Positions 12,267-64,000 of a stretch of DNA of 64,000 bases are shown one piece after another. The notes beneath the pieces were generated by a model that was not told the DNA's origin, ran no database searches, and was given only the letters and a program-made list of their open reading frames with translations. Positions within the stretch are counted from its first letter, which is position 1. Every line of letters starts with the position of its first letter. This DNA is from a virus: positions 64,001 to 128,000 of the IMG/VR virus record IMGVR_UViG_3300045988_172778, one strand, 5' to 3'. A program made the position numbers and the translations under genes.

Positions 12267-12428
12267 AATGCGGCTCGATAAAAGAAGCATTTTATTATAC
12301 AAAAAAACGGTTCATTTCGGTTTTATCGCGTTTCCGTAAAAAACGCGTTACCATTAGTTTGGGTGTGGCGGTTGAGAAGACCTCCCGCCCGCCATAACTC
12401 AATAAAAAAATAAAGAGGAGGAAAAATT

Positions 12429-15400
12429 ATGGCTATTTATAAACCGAGCAATTGCACGCCGTTTTTGACGTGCCTGGATTTGACGAAAGCGCAGGATATA
12501 ACTTGTGAGCTTAATACGTCCAACGAATTAGTTACGGGGTATAAAATCAAGATATTAGACAGTAACAATGACGTGATTTTCGAAGGGGCAAAGTTTGATC
12601 CGATAAATCCCGTTGGTTACGAGAACAGTGGCTTGAACGGTTCGACGCTCGTGTTGCCCTTAATTGTCGAAGGGAAGGCGATTAACAATAACACGATCGG
12701 CTATCAAAACGGGGGATACAACGTAAAAGATCTGACTGGCACCAAATTCGATGCGACGCGCTTTTCTAACGGCTATATCAATCAACCGTACAAGTGGGAG
12801 ATCGTCCTCGAACAAGGAAACACGACAGGTGTTAAAGCGGATAAATTTTACGACATGACTATCACGCAAGGGAAAGTCCTCGGTTCGACGAGAAACCGCA
12901 TTCAGAGTTATTTATCAGATAACATATATAAGGATTATTTCATTCAGTTAAACAATACTTCGAAGAGAGTGTTGATAAACAGCTATGACCATACATACGG
13001 GTATTTATACCCGCAGGAAAACAAGTTCACCGATGAAGAGGTTGAAGCGGCGACTTTTTTCGAGATATACAAATTCAGTAATGACCCCGATGTGATTGCG
13101 GCAGGATCGCAAGTCGCATATGCTATCAATAAACCGATGAAAGAAGTTAAAATCGGGGGAAAACAAAATACGATGGGGTGGGGGAGTAATTTGGTTTACC
13201 CGTATTATTTTGAGCAAGTTTTTAAAGGGTTACCTAATTCTTATGCGACGCAAAACGATATTCCAAATTCCGCGTTCAATTCTGATATGAGCGGGTTTCT
13301 TGTTGTTGGAACAAACGTTATGGTAAAAGGAGAAACAGACGCAAACGCTTTTAACGGAATCTTCACATTGAATTCGGTTTCTGAAAAGGAACAAGAGGTC
13401 GAAGTTGATGGCAAAAAAGAGAAGCAATATGACCTTACGCTCAAATGGCTTAGAAGCACACCTGGAAATACGTGGGCGAATTTAACCAACACAGTATTTT
13501 ACGTTCAAAACGGAACCGATAAAGGAAGGTGGCAGGTAAATACCGACACGCAAACAGTCGGGACGATTAACCAGACGCCCGTTATTTTTATCCGTGAGAA
13601 ACCCGTGGAGATATATACTGACGCAAGCAAAGGGTACAGTTCCGACAAAACAAAAGGGCAAATTTTTAAAAATACAATCAGGCAAGTTTATATACGTCCT
13701 TTTATCGGAATAGAATCTGGAATGCGGTTTAGTTATTTAAAGAAAGGTGAAATTGCTTATAAAAATATAAATGATTTCACAATAGACACAGAGACGTGGC
13801 AATTGAGCGGGAATATCGGTGAAATATTAAAACCAGATGAAACCCAATATAAAATTTCGTCTTATTTTAAGAGAGGCGATGAAAATCCGTTTTACGCTTA
13901 CGCCAAACCAGTTGTCGTATTGTTTTGCGATGGAGAAGTATTGAGTTCTGATGACTTAAATAGAACCATTATTTATAGGCGTATTGCAAACCTTAGTGCC
14001 GAATTTCAACAAGAAAACAATAAAAGTTGGACGAGTTTTCAATGGTATCTTAACGATTTAACAGATGGAACGACTATTGAGACGGATAAATTTTACACGG
14101 GGAATATATCTTATGAATTTGATGGATTGCAAGATGGGCATATATATCAAGCGATTTTGAGAATTGAAGATGAGTTTGGGAATACGTATGATTTTTATGG
14201 CAATATCGAAGCTAACATCTCTATAATTTCAGGCAAAACGGATTTGAATATCGAGCAAGATTGCGTGACCCAATCATATTTAATAAATTTCACAAAGGAT
14301 GGAGTTGTTATTCCGAAGTATGATCCACAAACTTTAGGGTACAGGGTTATAGGCGATAATATTACTTCTAAGGAAAATTATACTGTAAAAGAAGAAAACG
14401 CAGAGACGTATGAACCATTTGCCATAACCGACATTGGCGCATATGGATATAACATCGAATACCCCGAGACGGCAAGTGGTGAAACTTATTTATCGTTATC
14501 CAACATTGAACATCTCGAAGATTTTGATGACAGGGAATCGTTAATGGAATACGATCAGATAAATATTACGAATAGTGAAATTTATACGCCAATTGCAACT
14601 CCCGCTGGGAATGCCAACACATTTAATTCTCAACATAAATTAAATGCAGGATTCGTAGGCGATATAATTAAATACGAAATGGACGTGGATGATGTTTTAT
14701 TTAAAGATACAAAAGCCATCGTGCGTATATATCTTCCTCCTCTTACAAGAACTAATGACGCGGGCGAAATCGAACTTTATACCAACGTTTCCAATGATTT
14801 GTATGTGCAATACGAGGTTAAAAGTTTAGAACAAACCAATGGAATGGACTATACAGTTGTCAAAACACCCGACGACGAAGAACTGTTTTTCGTAAAAGAT
14901 AACGATTTTATTGTTGGGCGTTATAGTGTAATTGCCACTTATACGCGTGTATATTATTCAGGCAGTAGTGGTATAATATTCGCCGCAAAAGCTATACCTT
15001 GGGATGCAGAAAGAGCTCAAAAGGCAAAGGTTGTTTCGGCATGGGTGGAGCCTGGAACCACTGCCGACGAGAAATGCGATTATATTGATACAGACATCGT
15101 GTATGACGTCGAACCGAATAATGCGAATTATCGTCATATTCGCGGCGAAGGTAAGTTTAATAGTCATGGGCTTATTCATTTCCCTTTTACAACTTCACAG
15201 AAAGAAACGGGGCATCCTTCATTTTTTTACGATAAAAAGAATGCTTTGGTTACACAAGCTAACGATGCACAAAACAATGAAAACAAAATTAACGTTTTGA
15301 CGGGCGAGTATAACTATATTGATGACGGGCATCCCGAATCGCCGAATTATTGGCAAGATAACGTGTCTGAGGCAGAAGTATATGCGCAAACCAATATCAA

Positions 15401-60095: not shown

Positions 60096-60124
60096 TTGAC
60101 AAATAAAATTAGATATGTTATAAT
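60096..60124 (+). promoter_or_regulatory. promoter cassette 12 (drives two small ORFs and the RNA locus)
   Basis: TTGACA, 17 nt, TGtTATAAT. Confidence 0.7.
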
Positions 60125-61575: not shown

Positions 61576-61664
61576 GGAAAGTTGGCAGAGCGGCTGAATG
61601 CGACGGTCTTGAAAACCGCTTAGGCTAAATACCTACTGGGGTTCGAATCCCTAACTTTCCGCCA
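61576..61664 (+). tRNA. tRNA-Ser (anticodon TGA), CCA encoded
   Basis: Acceptor GGAAAGT/ACTTTCC; loop CTTGAAA; 17-nt variable arm; T-loop TTCGAAT. Confidence 0.85.
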
Positions 61665-61702
61665 GTCCCAAGATGATAACTTGGCGTTGTCCACAAAATA
61701 AC

Positions 61703-61731
61703 TTGACAAAGTTCACAAAGTGTACTATACT
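61703..61731 (+). promoter_or_regulatory. promoter cassette 13, internal to the tRNA array
   Basis: TTGACA, 17 nt, TATACT. Confidence 0.6.
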
Positions 61732-61817
61732 TAACTTATCACAATCAAGTATGGTGAAAACCATCAAGCATCTGTTGGGTATGCTCTAATAGGTCTCATC
61801 AACCAACCCAACTTTAC

Positions 61818-61911
61818 GGAAGTTTACTCAATGTTGGCAAAGAGGACGGTTTGCTAAACCGTTAGGTCTTCGTAAGAAGGCGAGCAGGATCGACACCTGC
61901 AACTTCCGCCA
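61818..61911 (+). tRNA. tRNA-Ser (anticodon GCT), CCA encoded
   Basis: Acceptor GGAAGTT/AACTTCC; loop TTGCTAA; 21-nt variable arm; atypical T-loop ATCGACA. Confidence 0.8.
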
Positions 61912-62038
61912 GTAACGTTATACGGATGGTCGCTGTATAGCGGGCTTGCAAGCTTAAATTTCACACGCCTCTCACAGAAGCGTACCACGTGAAATGACCA
62001 AAAGAAGAGTGTGGGATTTATCCCGCATTCTTCAACAT

Positions 62039-62085
62039 TGCCAAGTAGCGAAATTGGTAGACGCCTCGGAAAGACGAGGGTGCAT
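62039..62085 (+). pseudogene. tRNA-like 5' fragment (acceptor strand plus Leu-type D-arm plus GAAA-type hairpin) fused to tRNA-His
   Basis: TGCCAAGTAGCGAAATTGGTAGACGC matches 24 of 26 nt of the 5' part of the tRNA at 62658. No T-arm or 3' acceptor strand is present. Confidence 0.5.
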
Positions 62086-62160
62086 GGGGAATATGGTGTA
62101 ACGGTAACACGGCAGTTTGTGGCACTGCCATTCAGCGTTCGACTCGCTGTTTTCCCACCA
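62086..62160 (+). tRNA. tRNA-His (anticodon GTG) with encoded G-1, CCA encoded
   Basis: D stem GTGT/ACAC; anticodon stem GCAGT/ACTGC; loop TTGTGGC; T stem CAGCG/CGCTG. Confidence 0.8.
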
Positions 62161-62657
62161 TTAAAATGAACAACATGTAATAGGAACATATGCGGGGTAA
62201 AGTGCATTTGAGTAGCAAAATCCTCGTTAGCTTAAAATCTGGCGTCTGCTCATATGGCTGAAGGAGCCCTTGTTGTCTTCGATATTTAAGGAGTAGTGAC
62301 CTGGCAAAGTTGAAACGATACATACAATGCCCGTACCAATACGTATTGGATAAATATCAAAGCGTTATCGCCCTACCGATACGTTAAATCGGGGAATCTG
62401 TATTAGGGGTTTACTGAGATTCTCAAATCATTTAATACGGTAAATGAGGTGAGTAGATTAAATTCAATAAAGCATTCTTTGAATCGAGGGTTTGGATGTG
62501 GTGAGGCTACAAAGACCAACCAACGGTGTCTTAGGGTAAAGTAGAAGAGATTTGTGTTTTATTGAATTTTAGTTTAAAAACAACGGAATACGAATTTGTA
62601 TTTCGAAATTCGGATTGGCGTTTATTCGTAAGTGAGGTGCAAACTCAAACGCTATAT
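62161..62657 (+). ncRNA. candidate structured ncRNA spacer, about 0.5 kb
   Basis: ORF-free; shares the motifs ATATGCGGGGTA..AAGTG and GTTTACTGAGA..TCTCAAA with 60492-61575. Confidence 0.35.
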
Positions 62658-62742
62658 TGCCGAGTGGCGAAATTGGTAGACGCATCAGATTTTGATTCTG
62701 ACGACGAAAGTCATGGGGGTTCAAGTCCCTCCTCGGTAGCCA
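62658..62742 (+). tRNA. class-II (long variable arm) tRNA with anticodon TTG (Gln codons); amino-acid identity uncertain
   Basis: Acceptor TGCCGAG/CTCGGTA (U1-A72); G73; Leu-like D-arm; stem TCAGA/TCTGA; loop TTTTGAT; 13-nt variable arm; T-loop TTCAAGT; CCA. Confidence 0.75.
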
Positions 62743-63053
62743 AAGGTTTCTAGTGTTCCTTTATAAACTAGCGGTAGTGATGCCGATAATAAGAGAGTTG
62801 GATTTAAAAACTTTACTGCCCTAACAGTGTAAATAAGCAAGTAGTCAACTTTAAATGAGGAACTTTAGGGGCTCTACCTTATACATCAGTTTTCTTTTCT
62901 AATTCTAAACTAAAAAGAAATAGTAACCATTATGCCGCATATACCTTCATACGGCGGGGAAGAAGGAAGAGAAGGCGGAGTTTGGGATCGTGCGCACAAG
63001 TCGGCACCCATCGAGGCAATTACTTCGGTTAGGCGTAAGATTGCTACGTTTTT
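62743..63053 (+). other. ORF-free spacer, possible structured RNA
   Basis: No SD-linked ORF; hairpins such as aaagg..ccttt at the 5' end. Confidence 0.25.
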
Positions 63054-63087
63054 ACGAGTTTTTCGGTGAATAAAACTCGTATTTTAT
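63054..63087 (+). terminator. terminator-like hairpin plus U-tract abutting tRNA-Trp
   Basis: 9-bp stem acgagtttt/aaaactcgt followed by ATTTTAT. Confidence 0.4.
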
Positions 63088-63162
63088 GCACCTTTGGTAT
63101 AACGGTATTATCCTGGCCTCCAAAGCCATGGGATCTGAGTTCAAATCTTAGAGGGTGTGCCA
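63088..63162 (+). tRNA. tRNA-Trp (anticodon CCA), CCA encoded; weak D-stem
   Basis: Acceptor GCACCTT/AGGGTGT (with G.U pairs); loop CTCCAAA; T arm CTGAG-TTCAAAT-CTTAG. Confidence 0.65.
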
Positions 63163-63243
63163 GAACCCTGCGGTAGGTATACATACGCGCAGTCCGAAGC
63201 TATTGGCGGATATGGAATTTGTGTATAGCTAGCACACTACGAC

Positions 63244-63292
63244 GGAGTGGACGGGGTTTCCCGCGTACCAGACAAAAGAAACCACTCCACCA
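63244..63292 (+). other. acceptor-stem minihelix ending in CCACCA, abutting the tRNA-Pro 5' end
   Basis: GGAGTGG ... CCACTCC-A-CCA, with an internal CGGG/CCCG hairpin. Confidence 0.35.
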
Positions 63293-63369
63293 CGGGGTGT
63301 AGCGCAGCTTGATAGCGCGTTCGGTTTGGGACCGAAAGGTCGGAAGTTTGAATCTTCTCACCCCGACCA
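63293..63369 (+). tRNA. tRNA-Pro (anticodon TGG), CCA encoded
   Basis: Acceptor CGGGGTG/CACCCCG; D stem GCGC/GCGC; loop TTTGGGA; T-loop TTTGAAT. Confidence 0.85.
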
Positions 63370-63436
63370 TCGCCGCGTCGGTTCGAACCCGACCAATGAT
63401 TGCAAGGAACGGCAATTATAGTGGATAGCGGCACGT

Positions 63437-63513
63437 GCACTCATCGCCTAAACGGAATAAGGCTTCGGATTTGTAACCCGAGGATGCGGAATCATACTCC
63501 GCTGAGTGCTCCA
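63437..63513 (+). tRNA. tRNA-Thr (anticodon TGT), CCA encoded
   Basis: Acceptor GCACTCA/TGAGTGC; loop TTTGTAA; T arm GCGGA-ATCATAC-TCCGC (atypical loop). Confidence 0.75.
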
Positions 63514-63583: not shown

Positions 63584-63621
63584 AGAAACCGTGTTATTTT
63601 GCTTGACACGGTTTCTTTTTT
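63584..63621 (+). terminator. terminator hairpin wrapped round the next -35 box; ends the RNA locus
   Basis: 10-bp stem agaaaccgtg/cacggtttct followed by T6. Confidence 0.65.
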
Positions 63622-63652: not shown

Positions 63653-64000
63653 ATGGGAAATTTCATTTTAGTAATGGGTTTATCAGGAAGCGGAAAATCA
63701 TATTGGACAAATAACGTTGCCGATGATGAGGGCATGGTTATTTTGTCGAGCGACGCGCTTCGGAAAGAATTTTACGGCGACGAAAATATTCAAGATAACC
63801 CCGCCTTTATATTCGAGCAAATGCGTATAAGAACGTTACAGGCGTTAAAAGAAGGTAAAAGCGTTACTTACGACGCGACTAACCTCAGCTCGAAGCGTCG
63901 TAAGGCGTTGTTGAAGCAATTGCCCAAAGATGTTTATAAAATCTGTCATTGTATTATTACGCCCCTCGAAAAATGTATCGAGAACGATTCAAAAAGAGAA
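63653..64000 (+). CDS. P-loop kinase, polynucleotide-kinase-like (3' truncated by the window edge)
   Basis: AGGAGG SD; MGNFILVMGLSGSGKSYW..LSSDALRKEF..; open to the last base of the window. Confidence 0.55.
   Translation, partial: MGNFILVMGLSGSGKSYWTNNVADDEGMVILSSDALRKEFYGDENIQDNPAFIFEQMRIRTLQALKEGKSVTYDATNLSSKRRKALLKQLPKDVYKICHCIITPLEKCIENDSKRE

Follow-up and report, generated by a model that had tools for sequence, protein, structure and literature searches.

Can a transfer RNA (tRNA) that has the body of a leucine tRNA serve as a glutamine tRNA? The question is raised by a viral stretch of 64,000 nucleotides (positions 64,001 to 128,000 of the IMG/VR record IMGVR_UViG_3300045988_172778), here called the window, which carries at 62658-62742 on the (+) strand a tRNA gene that we named GlnX. 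Long-arm (class-II) tRNAs of bacteria are restricted to leucine (Leu), serine (Ser), tyrosine (Tyr) and selenocysteine (Sec), and GlnX joins such an arm to the glutamine (Gln) anticodon UUG. The original prediction, made from the letters of the window, had described this gene as a chimeric class-II tRNA and had held the amino acid charged to be not predictable. Our analysis suggests that GlnX is a phage-specific Gln tRNA that evolved from tRNA-Leu(UAG) by a complete identity switch, a reading to which we assign a probability of roughly 0.7.

The gene and its parts are the following.

62658..62742 (+): GlnX, 85-nt class-II tRNA with anticodon UUG, called tRNA-Gln(ttg) by ARAGORN
62658..62664 (+): acceptor stem, 5' strand UGCCGAG (U1, G2, C3), which pairs with 62732-62738
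62667..62683 (+): D-arm, Leu-type, GCGAAAUUGGUAGACGC (G10, A14, A15, G18, G19, A20a)
62685..62701 (+): anticodon arm, UCAGA-UUUUGAU-UCUGA
62692..62694 (+): anticodon TTG (UUG), reading CAA/CAG, from ARAGORN (position 35) and the sequence
62702..62714 (+): 13-nt variable arm, C, then GAC-GAAA-GUC, then AU, forming a 3-bp stem with a GNRA-type loop, followed by U48
62715..62731 (+): T-arm, Leu-type, GGGGG-UUCAAGU-CCCUC
62732..62742 (+): acceptor 3' strand CUCGGUA, with G73 (62739) and the encoded CCA (62740-62742)

The full sequence of GlnX is TGCCGAGTGGCGAAATTGGTAGACGCATCAGATTTTGATTCTGACGACGAAAGTCATGGGGGTTCAAGTCCCTCCTCGGTAGCCA, in which the D-arm reads GCGAAATTGGTAGACGC and the variable arm GACGAAAGUC. 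The Rfam tRNA model (RF00005) matches it with 51.6 bits (gathering score 29, E = 3.6e-8) and places a 10-nt insertion in the variable region, while the minimum-free-energy and centroid folds are both a class-II cloverleaf with a 3-bp variable-arm stem. GlnX has the features of the tRNA family, namely a 7-bp acceptor stem, three arms, a 7-nt anticodon loop with U33 and a GTTCRA T-loop, and also that of class II, a variable region of at least 10 nt with its own stem-loop. Its end pairs are U1-A72, G2.U71 and C3-G70, and its anticodon loop, UUUUGAU, includes A37 and U38. Each element that the original prediction had listed for a class-II tRNA at this position is present according to ARAGORN, Rfam, folding and direct reading, and the alternative fold with another anticodon that it had proposed as a refutation was tested by folding, with none of the alternative GlnX folds yielding a different anticodon.

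GlnX is a descendant of tRNA-Leu(UAG). To find its parent, IMG/VR was scanned with the D-arm and T-arm of GlnX while the anticodon was left free, and the matches besides GlnX contigs were tRNA-Leu genes, mostly tRNA-Leu(UAG). The D-arm is identical at 17/17 positions to IMG/VR tRNA-Leu(UAG) genes and the T-arm at 17/17 to the tRNA-Leu genes of L073, L068 and L028 (L-numbers designate the related loci and contigs that were fetched), the anticodon stem is the same as in tRNA-Leu(UAG), and the variable arm of the latter, C-GCC-GCAA-GGC-GU, has the same 13-nt length, 3-bp stem and GNRA loop. When the common GlnX form was aligned with the tRNA-Leu(UAG) of L073, positions 8-65 were identical at 61 of 67 nucleotides, the differences being A35U, which turns UAG into UUG, G37A and four variable-arm bases. 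The acceptor stem together with the discriminator differs at 11 of 15 nucleotides: five of the seven pairs are replaced (G1-C72 by U1-A72, C2-G71 by G2.U71, G3-C70 by C3-G70, G4-C69 by C4-G69 and U6-A67 by A6-U67), and A73 has become G73. The window copy carries an extra compensatory change, U27-A43 for the C27-G43 found in most relatives. The best match to GlnX in Escherichia coli is likewise a tRNA-Leu (84.9%), as are the best matches in deposited phages (about 80% in the GlnX search).

An arm-by-arm comparison with 197 distinct tRNAs from the fetched loci placed the D-arm and T-arm nearest to tRNA-Leu, and the acceptor end and anticodon arm nearest to tRNA-Gln. Profile hidden Markov models built from the tRNAs of these loci, which are a rough stand-in for isotype models, gave GlnX 52.5 bits for Leu, 31.4 for Gln, 14.7 for Tyr and 10.3 for Ser, with the rest at or below 15; controls scored about 55 bits on their own isotype (tRNA-Leu 57.3, class-I tRNA-Gln 54.2, a window tRNA-Ser 57.4) and at most 15 elsewhere. 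The chimera proposed at the outset, a class-II tRNA with a Gln anticodon, is thus borne out by both comparisons, with a Leu core and Gln ends. The whole acceptor end of GlnX, seven pairs plus G73, is identical to that of a class-I tRNA-Gln(UUG), L002:11099-11173, which shares a cluster with GlnX in contig L002. Donation of the anticodon arm by a class-I tRNA-Gln was also considered and rejected, since the stem as well as U32, U33 and U38 are already present in tRNA-Leu(UAG).

GlnX is not confined to the window. An exact-pattern scan of IMG/VR returned eight contigs with nearly the same gene, and a looser pattern, GGTAGAYRC-N6-YTTTGA-N20-31-GTTCRANYC, which is blind to Ser- and Tyr-type D-arms, returned 10 IMG/VR loci and 36 metagenome loci, many of the latter labelled human gut. 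Together, the pattern loci and ARAGORN give about 25 independent contigs of human-gut phages with GlnX at 90-100% identity, and further-diverged members are found in L009/L042, L026, L045, L036 and L047. Applied to 185,579 bacterial and archaeal species genomes, the same pattern gave seven matches, six of which are not tRNAs; the single tRNA among them, L016 from a Pararhodobacter metagenome-assembled genome, is a class-II UUG tRNA of another kind, whose G1-C72/A73 end is Leu-like. No GlnX was present in deposited phage genomes or plasmids, where tRNA-Leu at 80-88% came closest, and a megablast search of the tRNA-cluster region against deposited phages found no match. IMG/VR scans for a GGCAGA D-loop variant and for a CUG-anticodon variant gave 0 hits each.

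When 12 distinct family members were placed on the class-II cloverleaf, 99.6% of the cells were paired. Compensatory changes occur in 13 of the 23 pairs and in all five helices, including the variable arm, whose stem is maintained through G.U pairs and compensatory changes; in the covariation control, none of 500 shuffles reached the level of GlnX, and no slid register came close. Invariant in all 12 members are G2.U71, C3-G70, G5-C68, G73, G10, A15, U48 and the whole U32-U38 loop, and the first pair is U1-A72 in ten and A1-U72 in two. When the tRNA region of the window was compared with related loci by blastn, the mature tRNA (62654-62742, 95.5%) was in most of them the sole strongly conserved block, the neighbouring tRNA-Trp and tRNA-Pro being 77% and 82% identical and the spacers unalignable. 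Global alignment of the flanks gave 72-80% over short aligned stretches only, which is uninformative, and blastn was used instead. Given that the mature tRNA is far better conserved than its neighbours in distant phages, purifying selection on GlnX must be unusually strong, or else the gene has passed horizontally between gut phages, and both of these imply that it functions.

These data bear on the possibility that GlnX is a non-functional relic, either a tRNA-Leu pseudogene with a mutated anticodon or an artefact of assembly or recombination. The tRNA cluster in which GlnX is the fourth of seven genes offers some grounds for it, and the two features concerned are listed here.

61576..63513 (+): cluster of seven tRNAs, Ser-UGA, Ser-GCU, His, GlnX, Trp, Pro-UGG and Thr-UGU (ARAGORN, Rfam)
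62039..62086 (+): decayed partial copy of GlnX, directly 5' of tRNA-His

Such clusters are visibly shuffled, the window itself holds the truncated GlnX copy, and some distant class-II UUG tRNAs, for example that of L050, have imperfect acceptor stems. Set against this are the intact cloverleaf and encoded CCA of GlnX, its 90-100% conservation in about 25 independent contigs from different assemblies, the compensatory changes in every helix and the invariance of identity positions. The true decayed copy, which lacks the loop and part of the 3' end, also looks very different. We therefore consider a relic hardly tenable.

The decayed copy retains the acceptor 5' strand TGCCAAG, a D-arm identical at 17/17 positions (for a second exact D-arm copy in the window, 0.03 would be expected by chance) and a remnant of the variable arm, while an 11-nt deletion takes out the anticodon loop and the start of the T-stem runs directly into the 5' bases of tRNA-His. 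Its upstream flank is closer to the GlnX flank of L002 than to that of the functional copy in the window, which suggests that the GlnX gene moved within the cluster through recombination.

The amino acid carried by GlnX can be approached through the identity elements of bacterial tRNAs. The bacterial Gln set consists of G73, U1-A72, G2-C71, G3-C70, G10, U34, U35, G36, A37 and U38 (PMC9976931, Table 1). Eight of these are present in GlnX, namely G73 (in 12/12 family members), U1-A72, G10, U34, U35, G36, A37 and U38, and G2 is kept in a wobble pair. In the remaining two positions GlnX has G2.U71 and C3-G70 instead of G2-C71 and G3-C70, and given that both pairs recur in the class-I tRNA-Gln of L002, they may be a local version of the Gln set. 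G10, U34, G36 and U38 were already present in the Leu parent and were retained. The changes comprise six listed Gln identity positions or pairs (1-72, 2-71, 3-70, 73, 35 and 37) and two further acceptor pairs, and with the exception of the four variable-arm bases none falls outside the acceptor stem, discriminator and anticodon loop.

Leu and Ser identity follow other rules. A73 is crucial for LeuRS, bacterial Leu identity being made up of A73 and the tertiary core, and G73 counts among the antideterminants of both LeuRS and TyrRS (PMC9976931). GlnX retains A15-U48, G18G19, A20a and the long variable arm of tRNA-Leu, and has G73 instead of A73 and UUG instead of a Leu anticodon (NAG/NAA). It consequently falls outside both canonical families, that of Gln by its architecture, with a 13-nt arm in place of the 4-5-nt variable loop of class I, and that of Leu by its discriminator and anticodon. 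Ser identity involves G73 with C72, G2-C71 and a long arm (PMC9976931); of these GlnX has G73, while A72 and G2.U71 stand in place of C72 and G2-C71, its 13-nt arm compares with roughly 18-22 nt in the two tRNA-Ser genes of the window, and its Ser profile score of 10.3 bits is at background, so that there is no Ser-type body. A class-II amber tRNA-Ser has been made Gln-accepting by two base-pair substitutions in the acceptor helix (PMC9976931).

The codons of the phage offer a second line of evidence. When DnaE was aligned with seven homologues from phages without GlnX, the phage had CAA/CAG at each of the six Gln columns that are strongly conserved, and at none of the conserved Leu or Ser columns. 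Genes of the window end in TAA or TGA with no recoding, and CAA makes up 71% of the Gln codons of the phage, with a third-position G+C fraction (GC3) of 0.36. The standard reading of Gln codons is unchanged in this phage.

Considering the changes towards the Gln set, the loss of A73, the lack of Ser determinants, the acceptor end shared with the tRNA-Gln of L002 and the DnaE codons, we predict that GlnX is charged with Gln and decodes CAA/CAG, again with a probability near 0.7, and deliberate misreading of these codons appears unlikely. The view that the amino acid is not predictable was therefore too pessimistic: the identity changes fall on the Gln set, A73 is lost and the DnaE Gln codons are ordinary.

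Some points weigh against Gln charging. Neither the G3-C70 pair nor the Watson-Crick G2-C71 pair of the E. coli GlnRS set is found in GlnX, and the identity rules on which the prediction draws were worked out mostly in E. coli. The charging route, through GlnRS or through GluRS and GatCAB, would depend on the host, and the extra D-loop nucleotide 20a, present in GlnX as A20a, is reported as a GatCAB antideterminant (PMC9976931). G73 on human tRNA-Leu suffices for Ser acceptance in vitro, as cited in PMC9976931 (reference 58). Codon supply does not obviously explain why GlnX is kept, since about 11 of the fetched stretches, some of which are one contig in two collections, hold it together with a class-I tRNA-Gln(UUG).

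Two of these points, nucleotide 20a and the effect of G73 alone, would equally fit a mistranslating tRNA, that is, a GlnX charged with Ser, Leu or Glu that inserts this residue at CAA/CAG; for Glu, a non-discriminating GluRS would charge GlnX and the Leu-type D-loop would block transamidation. The class-II body with its Leu tertiary elements A15-U48, G18G19 and A20a, as well as C11-G24 and G30-C40 (both also in the Leu parent), speaks for such a tRNA, as does the existence of other metagenomic class-II UUG tRNAs with Leu-like G1-C72/A73 ends (L016, L029 and L050). It is nevertheless difficult to reconcile with the loss of A73 and the antideterminant G73 as regards Leu, and, as regards Ser, with U1-A72 and G2.U71 in place of the G1-C72 and G2-C71 of bacterial tRNA-Ser, the short arm and the background Ser score. 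Moreover, the joint change of the acceptor end and of positions 35 and 37 towards Gln is hard to explain without selection for Gln charging, and CAA/CAG stand at conserved Gln positions. Mistranslation is accordingly very unlikely in our view.

If GlnX is a Gln tRNA, it would be transcribed along with the six other tRNAs of the cluster, processed to an end with the encoded CCA and folded as a class-II L-shape. The glutamine-charging machinery of the host would then aminoacylate it, most likely GlnRS. Because this enzyme approaches from the minor groove to read the acceptor end, the U34-U38 loop and G10, no hindrance by the long variable arm is expected. Should the host lack GlnRS, a non-discriminating GluRS followed by GatCAB would take this role. 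Charged GlnX would decode CAA and CAG as glutamine. No other tRNA with a Gln anticodon accompanies GlnX in the window or in most of the related stretches that were fetched, and neither a class-I tRNA-Gln nor a tRNA-Leu was detected by ARAGORN or Rfam in the whole window.

The benefit that a Leu-type body might bring to the phage leads to the region 3' of the tRNA cluster, where two features were recorded.

63584..63616 (+): terminator-like hairpin of 13 pairs followed by a T-run, at the 3' end of the tRNA cluster (consensus scan only)
63653..64000 (+): 5' part of a gene for a polynucleotide kinase (AAA_33) with an HD phosphohydrolase domain, cut by the end of the window

The continuation of this gene is available from L046, a stretch of the same phage that matches the window at 97.5% over 3 kb and contains full-length open reading frames for the kinase-HD protein (12293-13195) and then for an Rnl5-type RNA ligase (13170-14429). 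Pfam matches in this cassette are AAA_33 (1.3e-22), HD (1.9e-5), RNA_ligase (8e-15) and PHA02142 OB (7.8e-21), the OB domain lying at the N-terminus of the ligase, and PDB matches are Naegleria NgrRnl (2.6e-33) and the kinase domain of Clostridium thermocellum Pnkp (4.7e-8). By its domain content, the pair is predicted to be an RNA healing-and-sealing cassette directly 3' of the tRNA cluster, and it is analogous to the Pnkp and Rnl1 of phage T4. Homologues of the kinase-HD gene lie near the tRNA clusters of L039, L023, L008 and L002, and the kinase-HD proteins of these phages are 35-43% identical. As for the host, the nearest relatives of the DnaE of the window phage are found in a human-faecal phage contig (45.8%), Clostridioides phages (42.6%) and Bacillus phages (about 34%), which points to a probable host among the Firmicutes.

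A refinement of the identity switch, which does not contradict it, is that the scaffold itself serves counter-defence. Here, Gln would again be the amino acid carried, but GlnX would owe its existence and tight conservation to a Leu-type body that conceals it from a host factor directed at the body of normal tRNA-Gln, be it a nuclease or toxin directed at tRNA-Gln or another means of depleting or sensing it, so that Gln codons stay readable. The cassette directly 3' of the cluster and the kinase-HD homologues near four further clusters are consistent with this, and by analogy with T4 Pnkp and Rnl1 they suggest that these phages meet tRNA-cleaving defences. Further points in its favour are the coexistence of GlnX with a class-I tRNA-Gln of the same anticodon, which in L002 has the same acceptor end and differs in the core alone, and the conservation of GlnX far above that of neighbouring tRNAs in phages whose kinase-HD proteins have diverged to 35-43% identity. 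Evasion of anticodon nucleases by phage tRNAs has been proposed earlier (PMC10264068). However, the UUUUGAU loop of GlnX is fully canonical and the published evasion model needs loop mutations, so only a nuclease that recognizes the tRNA body could be evaded. No tRNA-Gln-specific bacterial defence nuclease was identified in this analysis, these clusters often carry isoacceptors in duplicate (in L002, Met, Thr and Ile-UAU tRNAs occur twice each as well), and the link to the repair cassette is one of adjacency only. An anti-nuclease advantage of the foreign scaffold, with the adjacent repair cassette, is therefore possible, and we consider the counter-defence explanation as a whole rather unlikely.

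Compared with known systems, the Leu-to-Gln identity switch has several partial parallels. GlnX shares with bacterial tRNA-Leu(UAG) (E. coli leuW type; L073, L066, L068 and L061) the D-arm, anticodon stem, T-arm, 13-nt arm and tertiary core, and differs from it by UUG, A37, five new acceptor pairs and G73. With class-I tRNA-Gln(UUG), such as L002:11099-11173, it shares U1-A72, G2.U71, C3-G70, G73, G10 and the UUUUGAU loop, whereas its 13-nt stemmed arm (against 4-5 nt), its Leu-type D-loop with 20a and its Leu-type T-arm set it apart. In laboratory swaps (amber tRNA-Ser to Gln, and between Leu and Ser; PMC9976931), a long-arm body was similarly given a new identity by a few acceptor pairs and accepted by GlnRS, but those tRNAs were engineered suppressors in E. 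coli, whereas GlnX is a natural, phage-conserved tRNA with a sense anticodon and a predicted Gln charge.

Alloacceptor remoulding and anticodon shifts have been described in metazoan mitochondria (PMC4783518) and eukaryotic nuclear genomes (PMC3923123), and they resemble GlnX in that a gene is closer to another acceptor family and that an anticodon substitution is accompanied by adaptation. Unlike these cases, GlnX occurs in a bacteriophage, crosses the divide between class II and class I, and has had its whole acceptor end replaced. The CUG-clade tRNA-Ser(CAG) and the allo-tRNAs (PMC7609411) also combine a class-II-type body with an anticodon from another box, but they keep the identity of the body and the codon is reassigned or mistranslated, whereas in GlnX the identity elements have changed as well. 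T5-type phage tRNAs with a proposed evasion of anticodon nucleases (PMC10264068) and the T4 Pnkp/Rnl1 pair are similar in having a tRNA cluster beside healing-and-sealing enzymes and a tRNA unlike that of the host; in the published evasion, however, the changes are in the anticodon loop, while GlnX has a canonical loop on a wholly different scaffold and no cognate host nuclease is known. In the literature collection searched, which is incomplete, no class-II tRNA-Gln and no Leu-to-Gln switch in phages was found; one lead, PMC13219725, was discarded because its wording refers to a 'class II tRNA synthetase' in a reference title. GlnX is thus apparently a natural tRNA identity swap, and a Gln tRNA of a structural class not previously described for Gln.

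If the reading is correct, a natural and conserved Gln tRNA would exist on a long-arm architecture, against the textbook restriction, and tRNA identity would be able to cross structural classes without a change in the genetic code. With an identifiable parent, the full list of Leu-to-Gln changes becomes readable, which makes GlnX a natural counterpart of identity-swap experiments. For annotation, it is a case in which tRNA finders call Gln from the anticodon and body-based isotype models should call Leu; to synthetic biology it offers a candidate substrate for GlnRS that is unusual in its body. It may also inform on phage-host conflict over tRNAs, being phage-specific, well conserved, located beside RNA-repair genes and sometimes accompanied by an ordinary tRNA-Gln. 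Should the scaffold indeed be protective, such a mechanism would be distinct from the mutations of the anticodon loop that have been put forward to date, and would act together with the adjacent repair cassette.

Other elements of the cluster were recorded as well. Matches to a sigma-70-like promoter consensus lie at 60096 and 61703, 5' of the cluster or inside it (consensus only). GlnX and the 180 nt downstream of it form a 270-bp module (window 62654-62923, L002:9773-10042, also in L027 and L040) that is 98.5-99.6% identical between phages, with adjoining sequence at about 75% or unalignable. The 180 nt are missing in L023 and L039; their folding does not surpass that of shuffled sequence, and Rfam gave no match for them.

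Just 3' of tRNA-Ser(GCU), an element at 61915-61996 is 79-91% conserved in L002, L009, L027, L040, L042 and L049 and folds somewhat better than shuffles (z = -2.0). An Rfam match to abiF-RNA that overlaps it (61959-61995) scored 25.8 bits, below the gathering score of 37, and was not relied on. The tRNA-Ser(GCU) itself (61818-61911, 94 nt by ARAGORN) is below the gathering score of the Rfam tRNA model, and Rfam counts six tRNAs in the cluster where ARAGORN counts seven; its T-loop is GGATCGACACC, not GTTCRA.

Further unusual UUG tRNAs were encountered among the fetched loci. A second class-II UUG lineage (L010:1250-1333, L043:5087-5170 and L053:520-605) has A1-U72, U73 and the loop CUUUGAA, with a UUCG-capped variable arm in L010 and L043, which are one 54.9-kb contig in two collections. 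The cluster of this contig comprises 25-27 tRNAs, including a class-I tRNA-Gln, and is an odd set overall, ARAGORN reporting 'Leu' tRNAs of just 77-78 nt and an Asn tRNA of 94 nt. Other class-II UUG tRNAs have Leu-like or other acceptor ends, either G1-C72 with A73 or G1-C72 with G73 (L016:4184-4269, L029:5440-5526, L050:2501-2587 and L037:931-1014); they may read Gln codons while charged with Leu, represent intermediates in evolution or be pseudogenes. Finally, a class-I tRNA-Gln(UUG) that shares a cluster with GlnX, L006:10281-10354, has C at the normally invariant U33 (loop CCUUGAU).

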